This document shows, in pieces, positions 1,595 through 59,322 of a stretch of 59,322 bases of DNA. Positions within the stretch are counted from its first letter, which is position 1; every line of letters starts with the position of its first letter. The translations under genes and the position numbers were made by a program. Under the pieces are notes generated by a model. The model searched no databases, was not told the origin of the DNA, and saw only the letters and a program-made list of their open reading frames with translations. This stretch comes from a virus (Duplodnaviria; Caudoviricetes): the IMG/VR virus record IMGVR_UViG_3300020045_011589, positions 1 to 59,322 of that record. The stretch is one strand, 5' to 3'.

Positions 1595-2083
1595 GTGCCA
1601 AGAGGAGTATATAAGCGAACCCCTGAATATCGCGCCATAATGAGCAAAGCAATGAGTGACAAAAAACACTCGGAAGCATCAAAAGCCAAAATGTCGTTAT
1701 CTAAACTAGGTAAAAAACGTAAACCTTTTAGCGAACAGACTAAAAAAAGAATGTCTGAATCTCACAAAAAGATGGTGGCTAACAAAAACAATAATTGGAA
1801 GGGCGGGCGAAATTTTTGCAAGTCTATTGGGTACATCTATGTGCATTGTCCCAACCACCCAAACTCTAATCATAAAGGATACGTGCTAGAGCACAGATAT
1901 GTTATGTCGAAAAATATCAAAAGGCCTCTCCGAGACAATGAAATTGTTCACCACATAAATGGGGACACCACAGATAACCGAATTGAAAATTTAATCCTTA
2001 TGTTGCATGGAGAACATTCTGCCATGCATAGAAAAGTGGAACATTCCTTAAAATCAAGCAACACTCCGAAAATAAGCAGCTAA
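1595..2083 (+). CDS. HNH homing endonuclease with NUMOD3-like repeats
   Basis: KHSEASKAKMS repeats; EHR...VHHINGDTTDNRIENL; AAGGAG RBS. Confidence 0.9.
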   Translation: MPRGVYKRTPEYRAIMSKAMSDKKHSEASKAKMSLSKLGKKRKPFSEQTKKRMSESHKKMVANKNNNWKGGRNFCKSIGYIYVHCPNHPNSNHKGYVLEHRYVMSKNIKRPLRDNEIVHHINGDTTDNRIENLILMLHGEHSAMHRKVEHSLKSSNTPKISS

Positions 2084-11567: not shown

Positions 11568-12449
11568 TTATACGTTATTTAATTTTGCAAGCGGGCCTTT
11601 GTGCTTTAATGCTGTCTCATTATAAGCAATCGCTGCTTCTTTTTCCGTCACAAATCTTCCAACCTTTAAACGTTTTTTATTGAATTGGAAATCTACTTGC
11701 CATTTTCCAGATGCTTTATCAAAAGAAACCCCTTTATATTTAGAACTTTTTGTTCTTAGATACAATGGCATTTTCTTTGTTTCATTAATTTCTTGAGGAA
11801 AATTCAAACTAGCGAACTCTCCGTGAAATTGAATAGCAGCACGATCATATGTCAAAGCAGCTTCTTTTTCGGAACAGAAAAGGCCTAATACATAATCAGT
11901 GCCATTGGCACTTATATTAACACGCCATTTTTTCGTTTGAACATGCCATGATACACCTTTATATTTAGATGATGTACCTTTTCTTTTTCGAGTATTAAAA
12001 CGGTTTTGCTGCTCAGTAACTATTCGTAAATTACAACGTCTATTATCCAAACCATTACCGTTAATATGGTCGCCTTGCTGTCTATCATCATGTTTTAATC
12101 CAAGTATAAGGCGATGCATTCTAACTCTTTTGCCATTAATTCTTGAAATAGCATAAAAAGTACAATCGGAATTTTTACCGTGCCAATAATACTTAGAAAT
12201 AAGGTTATAGTTATCAATATCTACCAATGCAAATATTTTGGGATAAGTTTTTGTTCCCAAAGGTATTGCTTTTACCGTTTTGTCATCTAATACAATATTC
12301 TTTGTGTTACTTATTTGTTGTAACAATAATTTCTTGATCCAATGATCTTTCCCTTTATAGTTACAAAAAAGGGAACAAAACTTTCCTTTTTTCTGAATCT
12401 GTTTTTTAGTAAGTGGTTTGCCACATTGCTGGCATGTAGTATACTTCAA
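11568..12449 (-). CDS. Cys-rich N-terminus + HNH + two AP2 domains homing endonuclease
   Basis: TTG start after GGAGG; DHINGNGLDNRRCNL; two SSKYKGVS...EAA..Y AP2 repeats. Confidence 0.9.
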   Translation of the reverse strand: MKYTTCQQCGKPLTKKQIQKKGKFCSLFCNYKGKDHWIKKLLLQQISNTKNIVLDDKTVKAIPLGTKTYPKIFALVDIDNYNLISKYYWHGKNSDCTFYAISRINGKRVRMHRLILGLKHDDRQQGDHINGNGLDNRRCNLRIVTEQQNRFNTRKRKGTSSKYKGVSWHVQTKKWRVNISANGTDYVLGLFCSEKEAALTYDRAAIQFHGEFASLNFPQEINETKKMPLYLRTKSSKYKGVSFDKASGKWQVDFQFNKKRLKVGRFVTEKEAAIAYNETALKHKGPLAKLNNV

Positions 12450-12527
12450 TTTATCATTACCTCCTTGTAGGTAGTGGTCACGCCCTTGGCTGTTATCGCA
12501 GTGCAAGGGCTTTTCACTATTATAACA
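12450..12527 (-). promoter_or_regulatory. Conserved nuclease leader, copy 1
   Basis: TGTTATAAT; 29-nt hairpin 12482-12510; TACCT/AGGTA hairpin over the RBS. Confidence 0.8.
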
Positions 12528-33367: not shown

Positions 33368-33418
33368 TTAAACCCCCTACTTGTAATATTATAACAAATA
33401 CTAGGTTTAAATTACATG

Positions 33419-33489
33419 AGCTGGTGAAAAGAATCGAACTTTTATTTAATGCTTACAAGGCAATTGTTTTTCCTTTAAACTACACCAGC
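33419..33489 (-). tRNA. tRNA-Thr(TGT), AT-rich
   Basis: GCTGGTG/CACCAGC acceptor, GTTT/AAAC D-stem, CTTGTAA loop, AAAAG-TTCGATT-CTTTT T-arm; no encoded CCA. Confidence 0.75.
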
Positions 33490-35158: not shown

Positions 35159-35642
35159 CTTCTTTGATGATCTTAACTTTTTGTGGTTCGGCCTCTACCT
35201 TTACATTACCAATTTTATAGCAAATAACTGTAACATCTTTAGGCTTTAAGCCTTTTTCTTTTAACTTTTCGCTAACATCAGCTAAGAATTTGGCTTCATC
35301 TTCATTTTCGGCGACTACTTTCTTTTCTAAAATGATTTCTTCTTTTTTGCTTACCACTGTTACTTCATAAAGCGTTTTCATGTTTTCCCCCTTGGTTTTT
35401 TCTTTATTATTAAAAAGCTTTTTAAGACCTTCAGCATCTGCTAAATCAGAATTTCCTCTGTATGGGACTGGATGAACTGTTGGTAATGAACCATATCCAT
35501 AGTCTAAAGCAGACCAGCTTGTTGTTTTGCATCTTTGACAAGCATCTGTTCCAGCCAAACTGCAACAACAAGCATATGACGTAGTCACTGTTGCGCTTGT
35601 AGCTTCTACACTAAACCCCGTATTTACATGGTTAAATTTCAT
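35151..35642 (-). CDS. Hypothetical protein (possibly two fused small ORFs)
   Basis: Cys-rich N-half; internal RBS+ATG at MKTLYEV. Confidence 0.45.
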   Translation of the reverse strand: MKFNHVNTGFSVEATSATVTTSYACCCSLAGTDACQRCKTTSWSALDYGYGSLPTVHPVPYRGNSDLADAEGLKKLFNNKEKTKGENMKTLYEVTVVSKKEEIILEKKVVAENEDEAKFLADVSEKLKEKGLKPKDVTVICYKIGNVKVEAEPQKVKIIKEDV

Positions 35643-36033
35643 TAAGTACCCCCTTAAGTGTGGTTACGACTTGCTTTTGTTCTTCTAGTGTTATGCTCGG
35701 ATAAAAAGGCAAGCTTAATATCTCTGAAAATGCCCTTTTGCTTTCAATAAGATCATCCGGGCAACCATAATCATATACCGGTAATTCACAACAGATACCC
35801 TTGGCTTTCATTTGCTCACTTATTTTTTGAGCATTTTTTACTCTTATTGTGTATCGATAAGGACTTTTTACATCAACAAATTTACAATCTTCAGGTAACC
35901 AGAATAATAATTCATCATAGTGAGCAGCTTTACGTTGCCTTTCTTCTTGTATCTCTTTTAACCGCTCTAACTTCTTAATTGCTATAACCGCCGACACATC
36001 ATTCGATAAATCGTTAGCTGGCAAGACTTTCAA
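35632..36033 (-). CDS. DegT/DnrJ/EryC1/StrS aminotransferase, C-terminal half
   Basis: D..A.IA..KL.RL, YRYTIR, ILSLPFYPSIT.EEQ; TTG start overlaps the endonuclease stop. Confidence 0.85.
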   Translation of the reverse strand: MKVLPANDLSNDVSAVIAIKKLERLKEIQEERQRKAAHYDELLFWLPEDCKFVDVKSPYRYTIRVKNAQKISEQMKAKGICCELPVYDYGCPDDLIESKRAFSEILSLPFYPSITLEEQKQVVTTLKGVLNEI

Positions 36034-37121
36034 TTGAAATCAACTACCTTTAATAAAGCTTGTTTTGGATTTTTACGAATATCTTTTTCCCATATCCGGA
36101 CTACTTTATAACCCTTATTAATCATCCAAGTATCTCTTCTTTTATCTCTAGCCTTAACTTTTGGTAACATATGCCAATAATCACCATCACACTCTATTGC
36201 TAGTTTTTTACTTGGAATGAAAATATCCACTCTTGACCATCCAATAGGATATTGTGTTATATATTCCACCTCTAAACCATCAAGCACTTTGTGTATAGCA
36301 ATTTCAATTGAAGAAGGGCTAGCCGTTTTTGCTGCTTCATGCATTTTTAGCATATGACTATTCACAAATTCAGGTTCTTGAGACTTCCACCATTCTTTAA
36401 CTTTTAATCCGTGCTCTGGGTTTTTCCTACCTTTTAATTTTTGTCTAATTTTTTCCTTAGATCCCTCAGACCAAACCCTGTTTTTATTGCGCTCAATAAG
36501 AATGTTTATGGTTTTTTCTGATACCTTTCTTCCCATCTGTGCATTGCTAATATTTTTCTTGTGTTCATCTGTAAGTTTTTTGCCTAACTGCGATTGCCTC
36601 ATTTTTTCTATTGTTTCAATTGAGCACTTCATGCCCTTTCGAGGCGAGGGCTTGCCCCTAAGAGAAGTCCTCATTTTTTCTATGTGTTCTTTAGATAATT
36701 TTCTGCCCTTGAGTATTTTTGATATTTTATCTTTTGTTTCCTGACTATGCTTTTTACCTTTAGATGCTTTACTTAATTTAAGCCTAGTTTCTGAAGAACA
36801 TTCTCTTCCTATATTAGCTTTACTTATTTTCTCTCTTGTTTTACTAGAAACCTTATGCCCCATTAATGCTCGGCTAAGCTTTTTACAAGCTTCTGGGGGT
36901 ATTTTCTTCCCCTTATGGGATTCACTCATTTTTTGTCTTGTCTCTAATGAACGACTTTTACCTTTATTCGCTCTACTAATCTTATCTTTGGTCTCTTGGC
37001 CGTGTTTTTTCCCAAGAAAAGAGTGTTTCCCAGTGCAAAAGTTAGAACAATATTTGCCATTTCTTTTGATTTGCTGTTCGGTAAGTGGTTTAGAGCAATA
37101 TAAACACGTGGTATACTTCAT
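36030..37121 (-). CDS. Cys-rich N-terminus + NUMOD3 repeats + DUF559/Vsr-like (PD-D/ExK) endonuclease
   Basis: Many K.S.ET..K.S repeats; VDIFIP, IECDGDYWH, GYKVVRIWE. Confidence 0.88.
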   Translation of the reverse strand: MKYTTCLYCSKPLTEQQIKRNGKYCSNFCTGKHSFLGKKHGQETKDKISRANKGKSRSLETRQKMSESHKGKKIPPEACKKLSRALMGHKVSSKTREKISKANIGRECSSETRLKLSKASKGKKHSQETKDKISKILKGRKLSKEHIEKMRTSLRGKPSPRKGMKCSIETIEKMRQSQLGKKLTDEHKKNISNAQMGRKVSEKTINILIERNKNRVWSEGSKEKIRQKLKGRKNPEHGLKVKEWWKSQEPEFVNSHMLKMHEAAKTASPSSIEIAIHKVLDGLEVEYITQYPIGWSRVDIFIPSKKLAIECDGDYWHMLPKVKARDKRRDTWMINKGYKVVRIWEKDIRKNPKQALLKVVDFN

Positions 37122-37230
37122 TATATCGAGCCTCCTAGTTAGGTTCGGTCATGCTCTGGGAAGTTAGCGCTTCGCCAGGGCTTTATTTATCTTATTATAC
37201 CAGAACAAGCGTTTGGTTTAAACTATTTTT
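37122..37230 (-). promoter_or_regulatory. Conserved nuclease leader, copy 2
   Basis: TGGTATAAT; 29-nt hairpin 37153-37181; RBS hairpin. Confidence 0.8.
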
Positions 37231-37835
37231 TGATCCCCATAATAGCGATATTTTTTAACTTTTTTTACTAGCCTTTTATCGCCTGCAACAATGCCCCCGC
37301 CTGTACTACCGATTAGTTTTGTTGGCCAAAAACTTGAGATGCAAAGTGTTCCATTCATTAAAAAAACACCATGTGCCATATCTTCAACAATAGAAACTCC
37401 AAGCTTTTGCAAGCTCTTAATATCACAATAAGCACCAAACGTATGTACCGCTATAATAGCCTTTGTTTTATCCGTTATCCTTTTTCCAACGTCTTTTGGA
37501 TCAAGCGTTAGGTCGTCTTTAATGTCAGCTAATATGGGCTTTGCTCCTATACTTAATGCTGATATTTGGAGTGCGCTACATGAATATCCAGGAACTATTA
37601 CTTCATCACCATCACTAACCCCAAGAGCTATCAAGGCAAGCTTTAAAGCACTCAAGCCACTTGATACCATTGCGGCATCTTCTGACTTAACAGTACAGGC
37701 CCAAAGCCTCTCAAGTTCTTTCACTTTAGGTCCGGCTATTATCTGACCGCTTTTAATTACCCTTGCTGCTGCTAAAGCCTCAAGAGTAGAAAACTCGACT
37801 TTATTGTGTTTTACGCAAGTATGATTGGTTTGCAT
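37218..37835 (-). CDS. DegT-family aminotransferase, N-terminal half
   Basis: GPKVKELE, SSGLSALKLAL, GDEVIVP, VEDMAHG, SFWPTKL (PLP Lys). Confidence 0.9.
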   Translation of the reverse strand: MQTNHTCVKHNKVEFSTLEALAAARVIKSGQIIAGPKVKELERLWACTVKSEDAAMVSSGLSALKLALIALGVSDGDEVIVPGYSCSALQISALSIGAKPILADIKDDLTLDPKDVGKRITDKTKAIIAVHTFGAYCDIKSLQKLGVSIVEDMAHGVFLMNGTLCISSFWPTKLIGSTGGGIVAGDKRLVKKVKKYRYYGDQKIV

Positions 37836-38728
37836 ATTCCCATTTCGTTTAATGCTGGTAAATAATATTCTAAAAAATTGTCAAACTGTTGTTTTGTATT
37901 ATTTTTGGTTCCATATATTCTATGAAAATCCCAATGACAATCTATACATAATGTAATGCCATTATTAAGATCTGTTCTCAATCTTTTATTGTTTTTATAA
38001 TTATAAATATGATGCGCACATATATTTTCTTTTGATCCACATATTTGGCAAGTAAAAAAGTCTCGTTTGTAAATTGCTATTCGCCATTGTTTGTATTCAT
38101 CATAATTTCTTTTATCTCTTCTTTCTTCATCTGTTAAATTTGGGTTCCAGCTCGGATTATTTTTTCCTCTCTGCTTTAATCCCAGCTCTTTAAGATGTTT
38201 TGCCAGATTTATTTTATGCTCTTCAGATAACGGCTTGCCTTTTTTCGCCTTGCTCATATTACGTATTGATTCCTCTGAACGTCTTATCCCTGTTAGCGCC
38301 TTACTTATTTTTTGTTTTGTTTCTTCGGAATGTTTTTTGCCTATTTGAAGAAGACTCATCTTGAGCCTTGTTTTTTTGTTATGCTTACAACCAAGGTGAT
38401 AATTATTTCCTATTTTGCTTAAACCTATTTTATGTTTAGTTTCATCAGATAATTTTCTACCTTTTTGCGCTACACTCATTTTCTTTTTACTTTTATCAGA
38501 ATGCTTTCTGCCCTTACTGTTTGCAGAATTTGCACAAGTCTTAGAACAGAATAAACGATAGCTACGTCCTTTAAATGTTTTGCCACAATGCTTGCAGATA
38601 ACTTCAATTTCTTTGCCCTTATTCCAGGGTATCTTGTTGGCACAAGCTAAAGAACAATATTTGTTTTTATTTTTAATCTGCTTTTTTTTGAGTGGTTTAG
38701 AGCATTGTTGGCACGTGGTATACTTCAT
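37811..38728 (-). CDS. Cys-rich N-terminus + NUMOD3 + HNH endonuclease
   Basis: RDFFTCQICG, AHHI, NGITLCIDCH. Confidence 0.9.
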   Translation of the reverse strand: MKYTTCQQCSKPLKKKQIKNKNKYCSLACANKIPWNKGKEIEVICKHCGKTFKGRSYRLFCSKTCANSANSKGRKHSDKSKKKMSVAQKGRKLSDETKHKIGLSKIGNNYHLGCKHNKKTRLKMSLLQIGKKHSEETKQKISKALTGIRRSEESIRNMSKAKKGKPLSEEHKINLAKHLKELGLKQRGKNNPSWNPNLTDEERRDKRNYDEYKQWRIAIYKRDFFTCQICGSKENICAHHIYNYKNNKRLRTDLNNGITLCIDCHWDFHRIYGTKNNTKQQFDNFLEYYLPALNEMGICKPIILA

Positions 38729-38836
38729 TTGTAATTACCTCCTCTGTAGGTAGTTGCCATGCTCCCAGTAGTTTGCGCTACGTGGGAGCGATTTATTATA
38801 TTATACCACTTCAAGCGCTAGGTTACTATTGTTTTT
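38729..38836 (-). promoter_or_regulatory. Conserved nuclease leader, copy 3
   Basis: TGGTATAAT; 29-nt hairpin 38761-38789; TACCT/AGGTA hairpin over the RBS. Confidence 0.8.
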
Positions 38837-39044: not shown

Positions 39045-39473
39045 TTATAACGACTCCATTCTAATAATCTCGTCTTTAATTCCTGCCCTGATAAACCCTA
39101 GCTTAGAAAATAACCTAAGACTTGGTTTATTATCAACTCTAACATAGGCTATAAATCTATTAATTGACCACCTTTTAAGTACTTCTCTCATAGCTTGATT
39201 AAGACAAACTACGGCTAAACCTTTTGATCTGTACTCCGGTGATAAATAAATAGATACTATAGCGTTATTGTCGTCTTTATCAAATCTTAGCATGCCAGAG
39301 TTTGATTGAATTAAAAATAATAATATGTTCTCTTGTTTAATGGCTTGGGCATACCATATCCTGTGTTCATCCCAACCGACTGACTTTTGTAATGCAGATA
39401 ATTCTATAGCTTCTTCTAGGTTGCGAAACTTAAAAAACTGCTTAATATCCTGCTCGGTAGCGTAAGAAATCAT
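39045..39473 (-). CDS. pseH: GNAT N-acetyltransferase, PseH-like
   Basis: FRN, EH..WY, G.LRFD, YRSKGLA, N.PS.RLF.KLGF; pse context. Confidence 0.75.
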   Translation of the reverse strand: MISYATEQDIKQFFKFRNLEEAIELSALQKSVGWDEHRIWYAQAIKQENILLFLIQSNSGMLRFDKDDNNAIVSIYLSPEYRSKGLAVVCLNQAMREVLKRWSINRFIAYVRVDNKPSLRLFSKLGFIRAGIKDEIIRMESL

Positions 39474-40351
39474 TTTATTGCTTTGACTAATGCTTTAAGT
39501 TCTTCTTTATCTTTAGAAAAGTGATGATCAGGTCCGGCAAGTGTCTTATCGCTTGTATAATGGCATTCAATCCATAAAGCCCCAAGTTCTTCTGCTCTAA
39601 TTGCTGATTCATTGCCAAGTGAATGATCGCTATATCCAACTGTATAACCTAATTCTTGCATATGCTTTATTTTCCATAGCTTTGGATTCTTGCAGGGATA
39701 TTCACTTACGCAATGCAACCAAAGTGATGCAGGAAAATGCTTTTTTAACTCATTAAGATGAATAAAGTTTTGTATATGCCCTGTTGAAATTACAATAGGT
39801 TTGATACATAAATCTATCATCTGTTGCATCATTGCATCTTTAGTTATCATATCTGATGCAATTTTAAAATAATCGGTGTAGCTCGATACTTCTCTTACAC
39901 CTTTAGCACTTGTAGTTGTAATGCCGAATATAAGATCGTGTTCTTTGGCTCTTTTGTAGCAAGCTTTTACAAAGTCTAAGCTTATTTCATGTCTTTTAAA
40001 AAACTCATAATAGTTTTCATAGACTTCTTTAAGCAAAAATCGACTATGCGCTATTGATGATAAGTTATCAAACTGTCTATACTTAATTGTTTTACTGCCC
40101 GGACTGCAGAAATCATCAGCCCTTAGGAATTGGATTTTAACAGCCTGTGCCCCTGTTTCTGCTACTTCGTCAATCATTTGTAGTGCTAGATCAAGATCAT
40201 TTTGATGGTTAACGCCTAATTCTGCCGATATTATCGGAATGCTGCCATATGCTATTTTATGTCCTGCTATTTCAAGCATTTTTATATCTCTCATGGTCTT
40301 TAATGGGTGGACCGCCGACCTCGCCAACACTTTCAGGTAAAACATATTCAT
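39470..40351 (-). CDS. NeuB/PseI-family nonulosonate synthase, paralog lacking the SAF domain
   Basis: AELGVNHQ, AVKIQ, KIAS, ISTG, LHCVSEYP, GYSDHS, IECHYT, GPDH; true start probably ~20 codons downstream. Confidence 0.88.
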   Translation of the reverse strand: MNMFYLKVLARSAVHPLKTMRDIKMLEIAGHKIAYGSIPIISAELGVNHQNDLDLALQMIDEVAETGAQAVKIQFLRADDFCSPGSKTIKYRQFDNLSSIAHSRFLLKEVYENYYEFFKRHEISLDFVKACYKRAKEHDLIFGITTTSAKGVREVSSYTDYFKIASDMITKDAMMQQMIDLCIKPIVISTGHIQNFIHLNELKKHFPASLWLHCVSEYPCKNPKLWKIKHMQELGYTVGYSDHSLGNESAIRAEELGALWIECHYTSDKTLAGPDHHFSKDKEELKALVKAIK

Positions 40352-41339
40352 TTCGGTTAACGTAAATGCTTAATGCCTTACCGATCACAAGGTAATCATA
40401 TACAGCCGACCAGCCATTCCCAGGCCTGCGACAAGCTAAATCTTCACGTTTAATAACTTCGCCCTTTTTCATATTGCGGTTGTATACTAAGCTTGTGAAG
40501 TATAGATTTTTGCTAGATATATCCTTAAGTGATGGATATAGTCCCTCACGCCCTAATAATGGCTTTTCATCGGCCTCGATTTTGATATTATCTCTATCGG
40601 CTTCTAGTTTGCGTATTTCTGCAACCCATTTTTTAAATTCTGTTGGGTTTAGTGCAGCATCTTGATGATGTCCTTTAGTATCAGTAAATGGAGTTAAACG
40701 CTTTTCTATTATTTCAGCGCCAAGTAAAATAGCTATTTTGTCTGGCCTTATATCTTTATCGCCACTACTAAAACCAATTGGTATATCGTATTTTTTCCTT
40801 AAATAAGATATTGATAATAAATTTAACTCTTCTTTAGTTCCATGAGATTCATATAGCAAACTAACTTTTGCGTTCTTATCATGGCTATAGATAAACTCTA
40901 GAATATTATCCACTTCACCGCTAATAACAGCTCCGATATCAATCATTATCGGCAATCCTGTTTTAATACCGGCTAAAATTAACGGGAAACTCCTAGAATC
41001 CCAACCCCCAATTTTGCAGGTACTTATACCTATTTGCTCCATAATTGGAAAATAATCTATAGTGCCTACGCTTGCAAAATATTCAATCCCTATTTTTCTG
41101 CAATGATCTGCTAGTTTAAACCAATCGTTATCATCTTTAAACCTATAACTTTCAATAACGTCATATAGGTTTTTGCCTTCAAACTTGATATCTTTTTGTG
41201 CAAGAAGTTCTTCGGGATTGCTAGCGATAAATTTAATTGCATCTGCGCTCGCTTCTTTAGCTGCCGTAGCTGCCTGCATTGCTGCTTTAACGTCGCCAAA
41301 ATGTGTCGACCCTGCTTCTGCAATAATTTTTAAGCTCAT
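40272..41339 (-). CDS. NeuB/PseI-family nonulosonate synthase with SAF/AFP domain (divergent active site)
   Basis: IIAEAGSTH, ADAIKF, LGAEIIEKR, RRPGNG; canonical SDH is replaced by SSG. Confidence 0.85.
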   Translation of the reverse strand: MSLKIIAEAGSTHFGDVKAAMQAATAAKEASADAIKFIASNPEELLAQKDIKFEGKNLYDVIESYRFKDDNDWFKLADHCRKIGIEYFASVGTIDYFPIMEQIGISTCKIGGWDSRSFPLILAGIKTGLPIMIDIGAVISGEVDNILEFIYSHDKNAKVSLLYESHGTKEELNLLSISYLRKKYDIPIGFSSGDKDIRPDKIAILLGAEIIEKRLTPFTDTKGHHQDAALNPTEFKKWVAEIRKLEADRDNIKIEADEKPLLGREGLYPSLKDISSKNLYFTSLVYNRNMKKGEVIKREDLACRRPGNGWSAVYDYLVIGKALSIYVNRNEYVLPESVGEVGGPPIKDHERYKNA

Positions 41340-58465: not shown

Positions 58466-59322
58466 ATGGCTATAGCAGATAAGAACGGCTTTAAGTATAT
58501 AGTTCAATCCCTACCGGACAGAAAACAAAAATGGATCCCACTCGGCAAGATGTCTAAGACAAAGGCCCGGGAATTAGAGCATGAATATAAAATAAGAAAT
58601 AGAAAAGCCGGATTTAAAGATATTCACGATGTAACCTTTAGTCAACTAGCGTCAATTTACTTAAGATATCAAAAACCACGATTACAACTATCCACCTTTA
58701 AAGGCTATGAGTATATGCTTAGAGTCCACGTACTCCCTTACTTTGAGGACTATAAGTTAGGCGATATAACGCCATTTGTTTTGGATCAGTACATTGCAGA
58801 TAAAAAAACAGAAACAAAGTTAAGCAATAAATCTATCGGCTATCAATTAAAACTAATCAAGGCCATGTTTAAAAAGGCTATTATATGGGATTTGGTAGAC
58901 AGTAACCCGGTTGAAAAGATTGAACTTCCAAAGGTATCTAAATATAAGGCTAAATACTTAGAACCAGAGGAGCTGACACGACTTTTAAGCCAGTTTGATG
59001 GTAATTTGAAGCATAAGGCTTTTGTTACCACGATAGCGCTTACAGGATTGCGTAGAAGCGAGGCATTGGGTCTTTATTGGGATGATATAGACTTTGACAA
59101 CAATACTTTAATGATTAAGAGAGCTTATGTTTTAAAGCAATTCGGGCCAACTAAAAACAAAGAGGAGCGCATGGCTTTATTAACACCGGTCTTAGCGGTG
59201 ATACTCAAAGAGTGGAAGCTTGCTTGCCCTCCAACTAAGTTGGTTTTTCCAGGCAAAGATATTAATAAGCCCTTTAGAGCTGATACATTTTATAGAGTTC
59301 ATTTTTTGCCGGCTATAACAAA
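58466..59322 (+). CDS. int: Tyrosine integrase, N-terminal part (351 aa in total, continues at 122-320)
   Basis: ATG at 58466 directly after the upstream stop; manual translation MAIADKNG...ALTGLRRSEALGL (catalytic Arg box); joins in frame with 39..320. Confidence 0.93.
   Translation, partial: MAIADKNGFKYIVQSLPDRKQKWIPLGKMSKTKARELEHEYKIRNRKAGFKDIHDVTFSQLASIYLRYQKPRLQLSTFKGYEYMLRVHVLPYFEDYKLGDITPFVLDQYIADKKTETKLSNKSIGYQLKLIKAMFKKAIIWDLVDSNPVEKIELPKVSKYKAKYLEPEELTRLLSQFDGNLKHKAFVTTIALTGLRRSEALGLYWDDIDFDNNTLMIKRAYVLKQFGPTKNKEERMALLTPVLAVILKEWKLACPPTKLVFPGKDINKPFRADTFYRVHFLPAIT
59202..59322. repeat. Terminal overlap identical to 1-121
   Basis: Exact duplicate of the first 121 nt. Confidence 0.97.

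Follow-up and report, generated by a model that had tools for sequence, protein, structure and literature searches.

Nuclease genes with a common leader

The stretch of DNA analysed here, referred to as the window, is the entire 59,322-bp IMG/VR virus record IMGVR_UViG_3300020045_011589, which has direct terminal repeats and carries almost all of its genes on the minus strand. Three of these genes encode nucleases that begin with the residues MKYTTC and continue into a 29-residue, four-cysteine zinc ribbon, past which their Pfam domain architectures differ (Table 1). The three genes also have in common a DNA module of leader and N-terminus, which extends from the promoter to about codon 30 with a mean column identity of ~74%, and in each leader the strand opposite to the gene is predicted to fold into two consecutive hairpins, A and B. 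The subject of this report is this leader as a candidate regulatory cassette, in which a promoter embedded in the first codons would drive a short antisense RNA across the ribosome-binding site of the nuclease gene.

A first-pass annotation of the window had proposed such antisense RNAs on the basis of hexamer pairs in the first codons and 29-nucleotide (nt) hairpins with T-rich tails; all of these are present in the sequence. The plus-strand boxes match the promoter consensus at 9/12 positions each in cassettes 1 and 2 and at 10/12 in cassette 3, and overlap codons 2-4 (K-Y-T) and 10-11 of the MKYTTC genes. Their common -10 box, TATACT, ends 7, 6 and 7 nt ahead of the first base of hairpin A (a purine) in cassettes 1, 2 and 3, and is written with AAG and ACC, minor codons that make up 30% of Lys and 14% of Thr codons, respectively.

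The hairpins are better formed on the plus strand than on the strand of the nuclease message. Plus-strand hairpin A has 9-10 pairs, with CCUCC in its stem and loop, and hairpin B, topped by U.UNNC.G, has 12 pairs and a single bulged G; the three copies of hairpin B are directly followed by TTTATTTA, GATTTATT and TTTTCACT in cassettes 1, 2 and 3, respectively. With a folding energy of -16.4 to -17.5 kcal/mol and a T-rich tail behind it, hairpin B has the form of an intrinsic terminator, the tract being weak in cassette 2 and in phage Anatole (see below), and the three hairpins rank among the five strongest terminator-like sites of the plus strand. The complete element folds at -27.8, -29.1 and -28.4 kcal/mol on the plus strand (z -3.6, -5.0 and -5.7) versus -17.7, -21.6 and -19.8 kcal/mol on the minus strand at identical coordinates (z -2.2, -3.8 and -2.9). 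The three copies together have 65 pair cells; the plus strand shows Watson-Crick pairs in 54 and G-U in the other 11, which read A-C on the minus strand, and no cell shows the reverse. In hairpin B, 36/36 cells are paired on the plus strand versus 31/36 on the minus strand, and compensatory changes occur at 6/12 pairs; the sense form of hairpin A has ~5 contiguous pairs and two A-C mismatches per copy. Around the start codon, the sense strand has a further weak hairpin, which displays no covariation.

A second promoter, which the first-pass annotation had overlooked, faces the first. Each cassette has a perfect extended -10 box (TGnTATAAT, minus strand) that precedes hairpin B', the sense form of hairpin B, by 8-12 nt, and these boxes account for three of only four copies of TGNTATAAT in the genome; the fourth lies at 33388-33396 (minus strand), just downstream of a tRNA gene at 33419-33489. 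Because the sense box lies just upstream of the hairpin, the nuclease mRNA is expected to start right before it, and the two promoters of a cassette would face each other ~65 bp apart. Directly after hairpin B', the mRNA strand has an AUG or GUG (37150-37152, 38758-38760 and 12479-12481, minus strand) that opens a short frame, 11 codons long in cassettes 2 and 3, where its UGA overlaps the nuclease start codon, and 5 codons long in cassette 1. This frame is probably incidental, since it has no usable ribosome-binding site and its length is not conserved.

A family of related elements in other viruses

The three cassettes are paralogs, so their recurrence inside the window is not independent evidence, and the comparison was extended to other viral contigs. 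A pattern restricted to those hairpin B and linker bases that do not vary among the three copies, with 16 hairpin B bases fixed, matched at least 118 viral stretches, and 80 loci were taken from the matches listed. R1, a covariance model of the two plus-strand hairpins built from the three window copies, was found at E ≤ 1e-3 in 75 places in 74 of these 80 loci, with scores of 30-72 bits; the hits span the full model length, except for one at a locus end, and in the window the model detects the three cassette copies only. The sequence conservation of hairpin B is not assessable because the pattern imposes it, and what can be compared are the base pairs, hairpin A and the flanks, none of which was imposed by the search.

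The strand of pairing is the same across the family. With duplicates merged, 78 rows reduce to 63 distinct hairpin B sequences, whose cells comprise 664 Watson-Crick pairs, 92 G-U pairs, 0 A-C combinations and 0 others; at the six pairs that the pattern leaves free, 24 of 378 cells are G-U and none is A-C. Hairpin A was compared in 59 members beyond the window, after removal of one row whose segment was under 14 nt; in 47 of them the element strand is the more stable, with a mean of -7.73 versus -4.80 kcal/mol (Wilcoxon p 3e-8) and 82 G-U pairs versus 17 on the complement. Anti-Shine-Dalgarno content is present in 38 of the 59 hairpin A segments. These counts indicate that the conserved structure is that of the antisense strand, as expected of a cis-encoded antisense small RNA gene.

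The placement of the -10 box is likewise conserved. Fifty-five distinct members beyond the window have 120 nt or more of upstream sequence. On their element strand, TANNNT stands 7 nt ahead of the element in 22, at 5 nt in 5 and at 6 nt in 4, against 0.36 per position (at most 2) in the background. Altogether, 30/55 have TANNNT at 5-8 nt, eight of these with a TG, and most of the -35 matches are weak. The box occurs in every codon phase (19, 5 and 2 of 26), the N-terminal peptides differ and the contigs range from 36 to 71% G+C; since the phases and the peptides vary, a preference for particular amino acids is an unlikely explanation. What exceeds chance is thus not the box as such but its position, which is kept relative to this RNA element across unrelated phages and lies, as a sequence signal, at the distance appropriate for a promoter of an antisense small RNA gene. 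At the other end of the element, a T follows hairpin B at +3 in 48/59 and at +4 in 46/59 members, with no G at +2 or +3, and the T fraction is 0.61 over the first 8 nt versus 0.26 at nt 31-60. The sense strand, for its part, is enriched in TANNNT at 11-21 nt ahead of hairpin B', which makes facing promoters a trait of the family.

In most members, the gene on the opposite strand begins within a few bases of the element; 13 hits have no open reading frame (ORF) of at least 60 amino acids (aa) beside it, and several of these 13 lie at the end of a locus. Pfam annotation of the 53 distinct downstream ORFs gives HNH_3 in 11, HNH in 6, HNH_5 in 4 and HNH_4 in 4 (assignments that can overlap), Endonuclease VII in 2, LAGLIDADG in 1 and PD-(D/E)XK in 1, as well as phage integrase in 3 and primase-polymerase in 3, and many have no family. 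The cassette is not specific to nucleases or to the window phage, as far as these annotations show, since it also stands ahead of integrase and primase genes. The comparison lends no support to the type-I toxin-antitoxin-like logic that the first-pass annotation proposed for homing endonucleases.

Three cultured phages carry R1 matches: Propionibacterium phage Anatole (45.8 bits), Pseudanabaena phage Pan2 (42.4 bits) and Acetobacter phage phiAP1 (31.1 bits). The Anatole element has a TAGAAT box ending 7 nt ahead of it and, on its far side, another TAGAAT that points towards it. The adjoining gene 2, an HNH endonuclease, has its annotated start at 1217, and its ORF extends to a GTG at 1484 (locus 729-1484, 251 aa); the longer form has a typical C..GC N-terminus and directly adjoins the RNA element, suggesting that the start of gene 2 is probably mis-annotated.

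Searches by protein sequence retrieved other sets of loci. The MKYTTC start, as a degenerate pattern, gave 0 matches in viral contigs, one chance match in metagenomes, inside an unrelated ORF, and one chance match in a high-GC genome. An N-terminal alignment search yielded no confirmed locus, a word-based protein search with residues 1-45 returned the query only, and the whole-protein search with cassette 3 returned no locus. Whole-protein relatives of the cassette 1 and 2 nucleases came from 58 loci, matching mostly via the NUMOD3 repeats, none of them with the MKYTTC start. The RNA element had 0 matches among 64 protein-search loci. Rfam has no match at gathering score across the window, none at E ≤ 5 over the leaders and no family covering the element.

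Interpretation and alternative explanations

A facing-promoter cassette, in which a plus-strand antisense RNA covers the ribosome site of the nuclease gene, is in our judgement the best explanation of the sequence evidence, with a probability of about 0.6. The minus-strand TGnTATAAT promoter would produce the nuclease mRNA, whose 5' leader is the complement of the element, and the plus-strand promoter, with its -10 TATACT inside codons 2-4, would produce an RNA of ~60-70 nt that begins at the first base of hairpin A, with its anti-Shine-Dalgarno sequence, and ends with hairpin B and a U tract. Such an RNA would be fully complementary to the mRNA leader and would most likely pair loop to loop first; pairing would cover the ribosome site and/or lead to cutting of the duplex, and head-on transcription would add interference. 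As the phage carries an integrase, the cassette could possibly serve to silence a host-type promoter in the lysogen. Computation establishes the anatomy, the strand of pairing and, for a large family of viral contigs, that the -10 box and T tract keep their positions; from these we infer RNA production, repression rather than stabilisation or mere interference, and timing. The small RNA proposed by the first-pass annotation, running on the plus strand over the ribosome-binding site and ending at the hairpin, thereby gains comparative support from the pairing strand, TANNNT at 7 nt and the T tract.

Several observations weigh against this interpretation. Promoter-like sites near the cassettes are as frequent as in shuffled sequence (16 versus 15.8 per 5 kb and 13 versus 12.6 per 4 kb); the genome is AT-rich and genome-wide counts are 163 versus 176 +/- 14.5 in shuffles, and sites that combine TG with a -10 match of at least 5/6 number 8 versus 7.6 +/- 3.1 expected. 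With hexamers at shuffle density and paralogous copies, the window by itself proves little. The -35 boxes are weak, TANNNT is missing at 5-8 nt in 25/55 members, and many members, with cassette 2 and phage Anatole among them, have a short T tract. The folding energy of hairpin B by itself favours the complement in 34/63 sequences, so for this hairpin the strands are separated only by the G-U/A-C count. The family was gathered with a fixed pattern, its alignment (A7) was fitted to the model and its members are partly related. Finally, the sense leader holds the same hairpins in a weaker form and begins with one, and a role on that strand is possible.

If such a role were the only one, the element would act in the sense mRNA, with the 5'-terminal hairpin B' stabilising the message and hairpin A' partly sequestering the Shine-Dalgarno sequence, as in T-even homing-endonuclease genes, and the plus-strand boxes would be by-products. 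The perfect sense -10 box in front of hairpin B' in all three cassettes, the enrichment of TANNNT there in the family and a sense strand that still folds better than shuffles (z -2.2 to -3.8) speak for this explanation, and precedent is at hand in the hairpins that sequester the ribosome-binding site in documented control of T4 and Aeh1 nuclease genes (PMC2988022) and in the 5' untranslated region hairpins reported for Vsr-like and GIY-YIG nucleases in fractured genes (PMC2677866). It is nonetheless unlikely, since every non-Watson-Crick cell is A-C on the sense strand (11/65 in the window; 24 versus 0 at the free pairs of the family), sense hairpin A keeps just ~5 contiguous pairs, and both the constant 7-nt distance of TANNNT within unrelated coding sequences and the T tract of the other strand are left unexplained. 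A sense-strand role may exist alongside the antisense RNA, not in its place.

Two further explanations dispense with a regulatory RNA altogether. The boxes could be there by chance and the structure could serve a non-RNA role, for example as a single-stranded DNA hairpin in recombination or replication of a mobile cassette; the hexamer density equal to that of shuffles, the tolerance of DNA hairpins, too, for G-T pairs and the travel of the cassette with mobile nuclease genes of several families fit this idea. A TANNNT peak of 22/55 at one position versus 0.36 and a T tract are features of a transcription unit, however, and no DNA-level function predicts anti-Shine-Dalgarno content in 38/59 hairpin A segments, making the DNA hairpin improbable. 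Slightly less credible still is an insulator, with no dedicated promoter and no regulatory RNA, in which hairpin B and the T tract would stop stray antisense transcription from the AT-rich nuclease gene before it enters the upstream phage genes: it would suit the terminator-like rank of the three hairpins and the twofold excess of promoter-like hexamer pairs on the non-coding plus strand over the coding minus strand (108 versus 55), but gives no account of the anti-Shine-Dalgarno hairpin A, its plus-strand-specific pairing or the constant 7-nt spacing of the -10 box.

Beyond the window, the facing-promoter cassette could belong to an uncatalogued, widespread class of phage small RNAs, an idea put forward tentatively and at slightly less than even odds. 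Members would be self-contained 'brake cassettes' of two facing promoters, antisense RNA and leader, moving as a unit between unrelated genes that are dangerous if untimely. These genes would be those of integrases, primase-polymerases and homing endonucleases with four or more nuclease folds, carried by phages whose hosts range across Firmicutes, Actinobacteria, Proteobacteria and Cyanobacteria, and a conserved host or phage factor might dock at the top of hairpin B, which is nearly constant (GUU..CGC loop, bulged G).

Cassette coordinates and surroundings

Table 1. Features of the three cassettes in the window.
Feature	Coordinates	Strand	Description
Cassette 1 gene	36030..37121	-	zinc ribbon + NUMOD3 repeats + Vsr-like REase_MTES_1575/DUF559 nuclease
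Cassette 1 predicted antisense promoter	37089..37117	+	TTTAGA 37089-37094, TG 37109-37110, TATACT 37112-37117, 17-nt spacer
Cassette 1 two-hairpin element	37125..37181	+	hairpin A 37125-37149, CAT linker, hairpin B 37153-37181; 73.1 bits
Cassette 1 anti-Shine-Dalgarno CCTCC	37131-37135	+	within hairpin A; complement of the gene's Shine-Dalgarno sequence
Cassette 1 T-rich tail, terminator-like	37182..37190	+	after hairpin B; predicted 3' end of antisense RNA
Cassette 1 putative sense promoter	37194..37222	-	TTTAAA-17-TATAAT with TG, 10/12; faces antisense promoter
Cassette 2 gene	37811..38728	-	zinc ribbon + NUMOD3 + HNH nuclease
Cassette 2 predicted antisense promoter	38696..38724	+	TTTAGA-17-TATACT with TG
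Cassette 2 two-hairpin element	38731..38789	+	hairpin A 38731-38757, hairpin B 38761-38789; 80.1 bits
Cassette 2 tail GATTTATTAT	38790..38799	+	weakest of the three T tracts
Cassette 2 sense extended -10 box TGGTATAAT	38800..38808	-	preceded by minus-strand terminator 38865-38843
Cassette 3 gene, TTG start	11568..12449	-	zinc ribbon + HNH_3 + two AP2 domains
Cassette 3 predicted antisense promoter	12418..12445	+	TTGCCA-16-TATACT, no TG
Cassette 3 two-hairpin element	12453..12510	+	hairpin A 12453-12478, hairpin B 12482-12510; 81.5 bits
Cassette 3 tail TTTTCACT	12511..12518	+	after hairpin B
Cassette 3 sense extended -10 box TGTTATAAT	12519..12527	-	perfect TGnTATAAT

The zinc-ribbon stretches (37032-37121, 38639-38728 and 12360-12449, minus strand) follow the pattern C..C.KPL...QI....K[YF]CS..C, for which no Pfam family was found at E ≤ 0.01. 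One N-terminal ribbon thus heads three different nuclease architectures in the window, and the pattern also occurs in six other viral loci, which have other N-termini and no such leader; the residues ahead of the first Cys are not conserved in these ribbons. A fourth homing-endonuclease-like gene at 1595-2083 (plus strand), encoding 162 aa with NUMOD3 and HNH_3, has neither the MKYTTC start nor the RNA element.

Cassette 1 interrupts a DegT/DnrJ/EryC1 aminotransferase gene (35632-37835, minus strand), leaving an N part at 37218-37835 (Pfam profile positions 9-203) and a C part at 35632-36033 (positions 223-359), and the stop codon of the cassette 1 nuclease overlaps the TTG start of the C part. 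The split gene resembles the 'fractured genes' of Vsr-like nucleases, and no split intein was seen. Two genes for NeuB-family synthases and one for a GNAT acetyltransferase lie at 39045-41339 (minus strand), and together with the split aminotransferase they look like a pathway for a nonulosonic-acid sugar of the sialic or pseudaminic type carried on the phage.

The large terminase is nearest, at <50% identity, to those of phages of Geobacillus, Clostridium and Staphylococcus, and a tyrosine integrase ORF (58466-59320, plus strand) runs past the right end of the record, which may be a circular assembly. From these terminase relatives and the integrase, the virus is probably a temperate phage of a Firmicute host. 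A DNA search of a phage collection for close kin of the window phage gave no match, and the relatives of its DegT protein are all at ≤39% identity.

Comparison with known systems

The restraint of selfish nuclease genes by phages is known mainly from T4, through mRNA hairpins and late promoters. PMC2988022 describes control of phage homing endonucleases by sense-strand hairpins with nested late promoters, combined with autorepression. In T4 I-TevI, I-TevII, I-TevIII and segB, in Aeh1 mobE and in fractured-gene nucleases, a structured leader lies directly upstream of the gene, as in the cassette (PMC2988022; PMC2677866), and a Vsr-like nuclease with a structured leader splits its host gene and overlaps the start of the downstream part (PMC2677866). 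These leaders are interpreted as sense-strand structures with the promoter inside the hairpin, whereas the cassette has its promoter ahead of both hairpins and pairs on the opposite strand; its sense promoter is not nested, because a box 8-12 nt upstream of hairpin B' puts both hairpins in the transcript.

An antisense RNA opposite a phage homing-endonuclease gene has a precedent in CfrI of cyanophage S-PM2, the only published case found in the literature search (PMC2984593; PMC12197685). CfrI is unlike the cassette: it is ~225 nt long, links the nuclease gene to psbA and is not a 5'-leader cassette. An antisense-RNA leader cassette of homing endonucleases was not found in that search; the leader motifs in Supplementary Figure S4 of PMC2677866 may be relevant to a possible overlap between that family of leaders and this one. 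If the proposed reading is correct, phages widely use a different solution, in which the first codons and the leader house a portable antisense-RNA gene. The coding of the first five codons would then be constrained by the cassette, which would also explain why unrelated nucleases have a common leader, and in annotation it could pass for a 5' untranslated region riboswitch or a terminator. Since the cultured phages Anatole, Pan2 and phiAP1 carry members, the reading is directly testable.

The first-pass annotation likened the arrangement to symE/SymR, and as an analogy of geometry this is fair: SymR is a 77-nt RNA opposite the symE 5' end, with its promoter embedded in the coding sequence (PMC1891008). 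The likeness is in geometry only, and sequence comparison indicates that this geometry is present and conserved in the family. SymE of E. coli is an AbrB/MazE-like protein that is induced by the SOS response and controlled by LexA and Lon, and nothing of this applies to the cassette. By sequence, the cassette falls outside the SymR/symE group: there is no SymR match in Rfam, and its targets are nucleases of the NUMOD3/Vsr-like, NUMOD3/HNH and HNH_3/AP2 types.

Cis-antisense RNAs by which mobile elements hold down their own nuclease, the transposase, offer a further parallel: art200 for IS200 tnpA and RNA-OUT for IS10 RNA-IN (PMC4513863). As predicted for the cassette, they have an antisense promoter in or beside the coding start and an mRNA stem-loop over the Shine-Dalgarno sequence, and in these systems pairing starts at loops and blocks 30S binding. 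The cassette has no sequence or structural homology to them, as judged by the lack of an Rfam match. Whereas IS200 and IS10 restrain a transposase, the target here would be a phage homing endonuclease or other phage gene in a likely Firmicute host, and the cassette, unlike IS200/IS10, is portable between unrelated genes.

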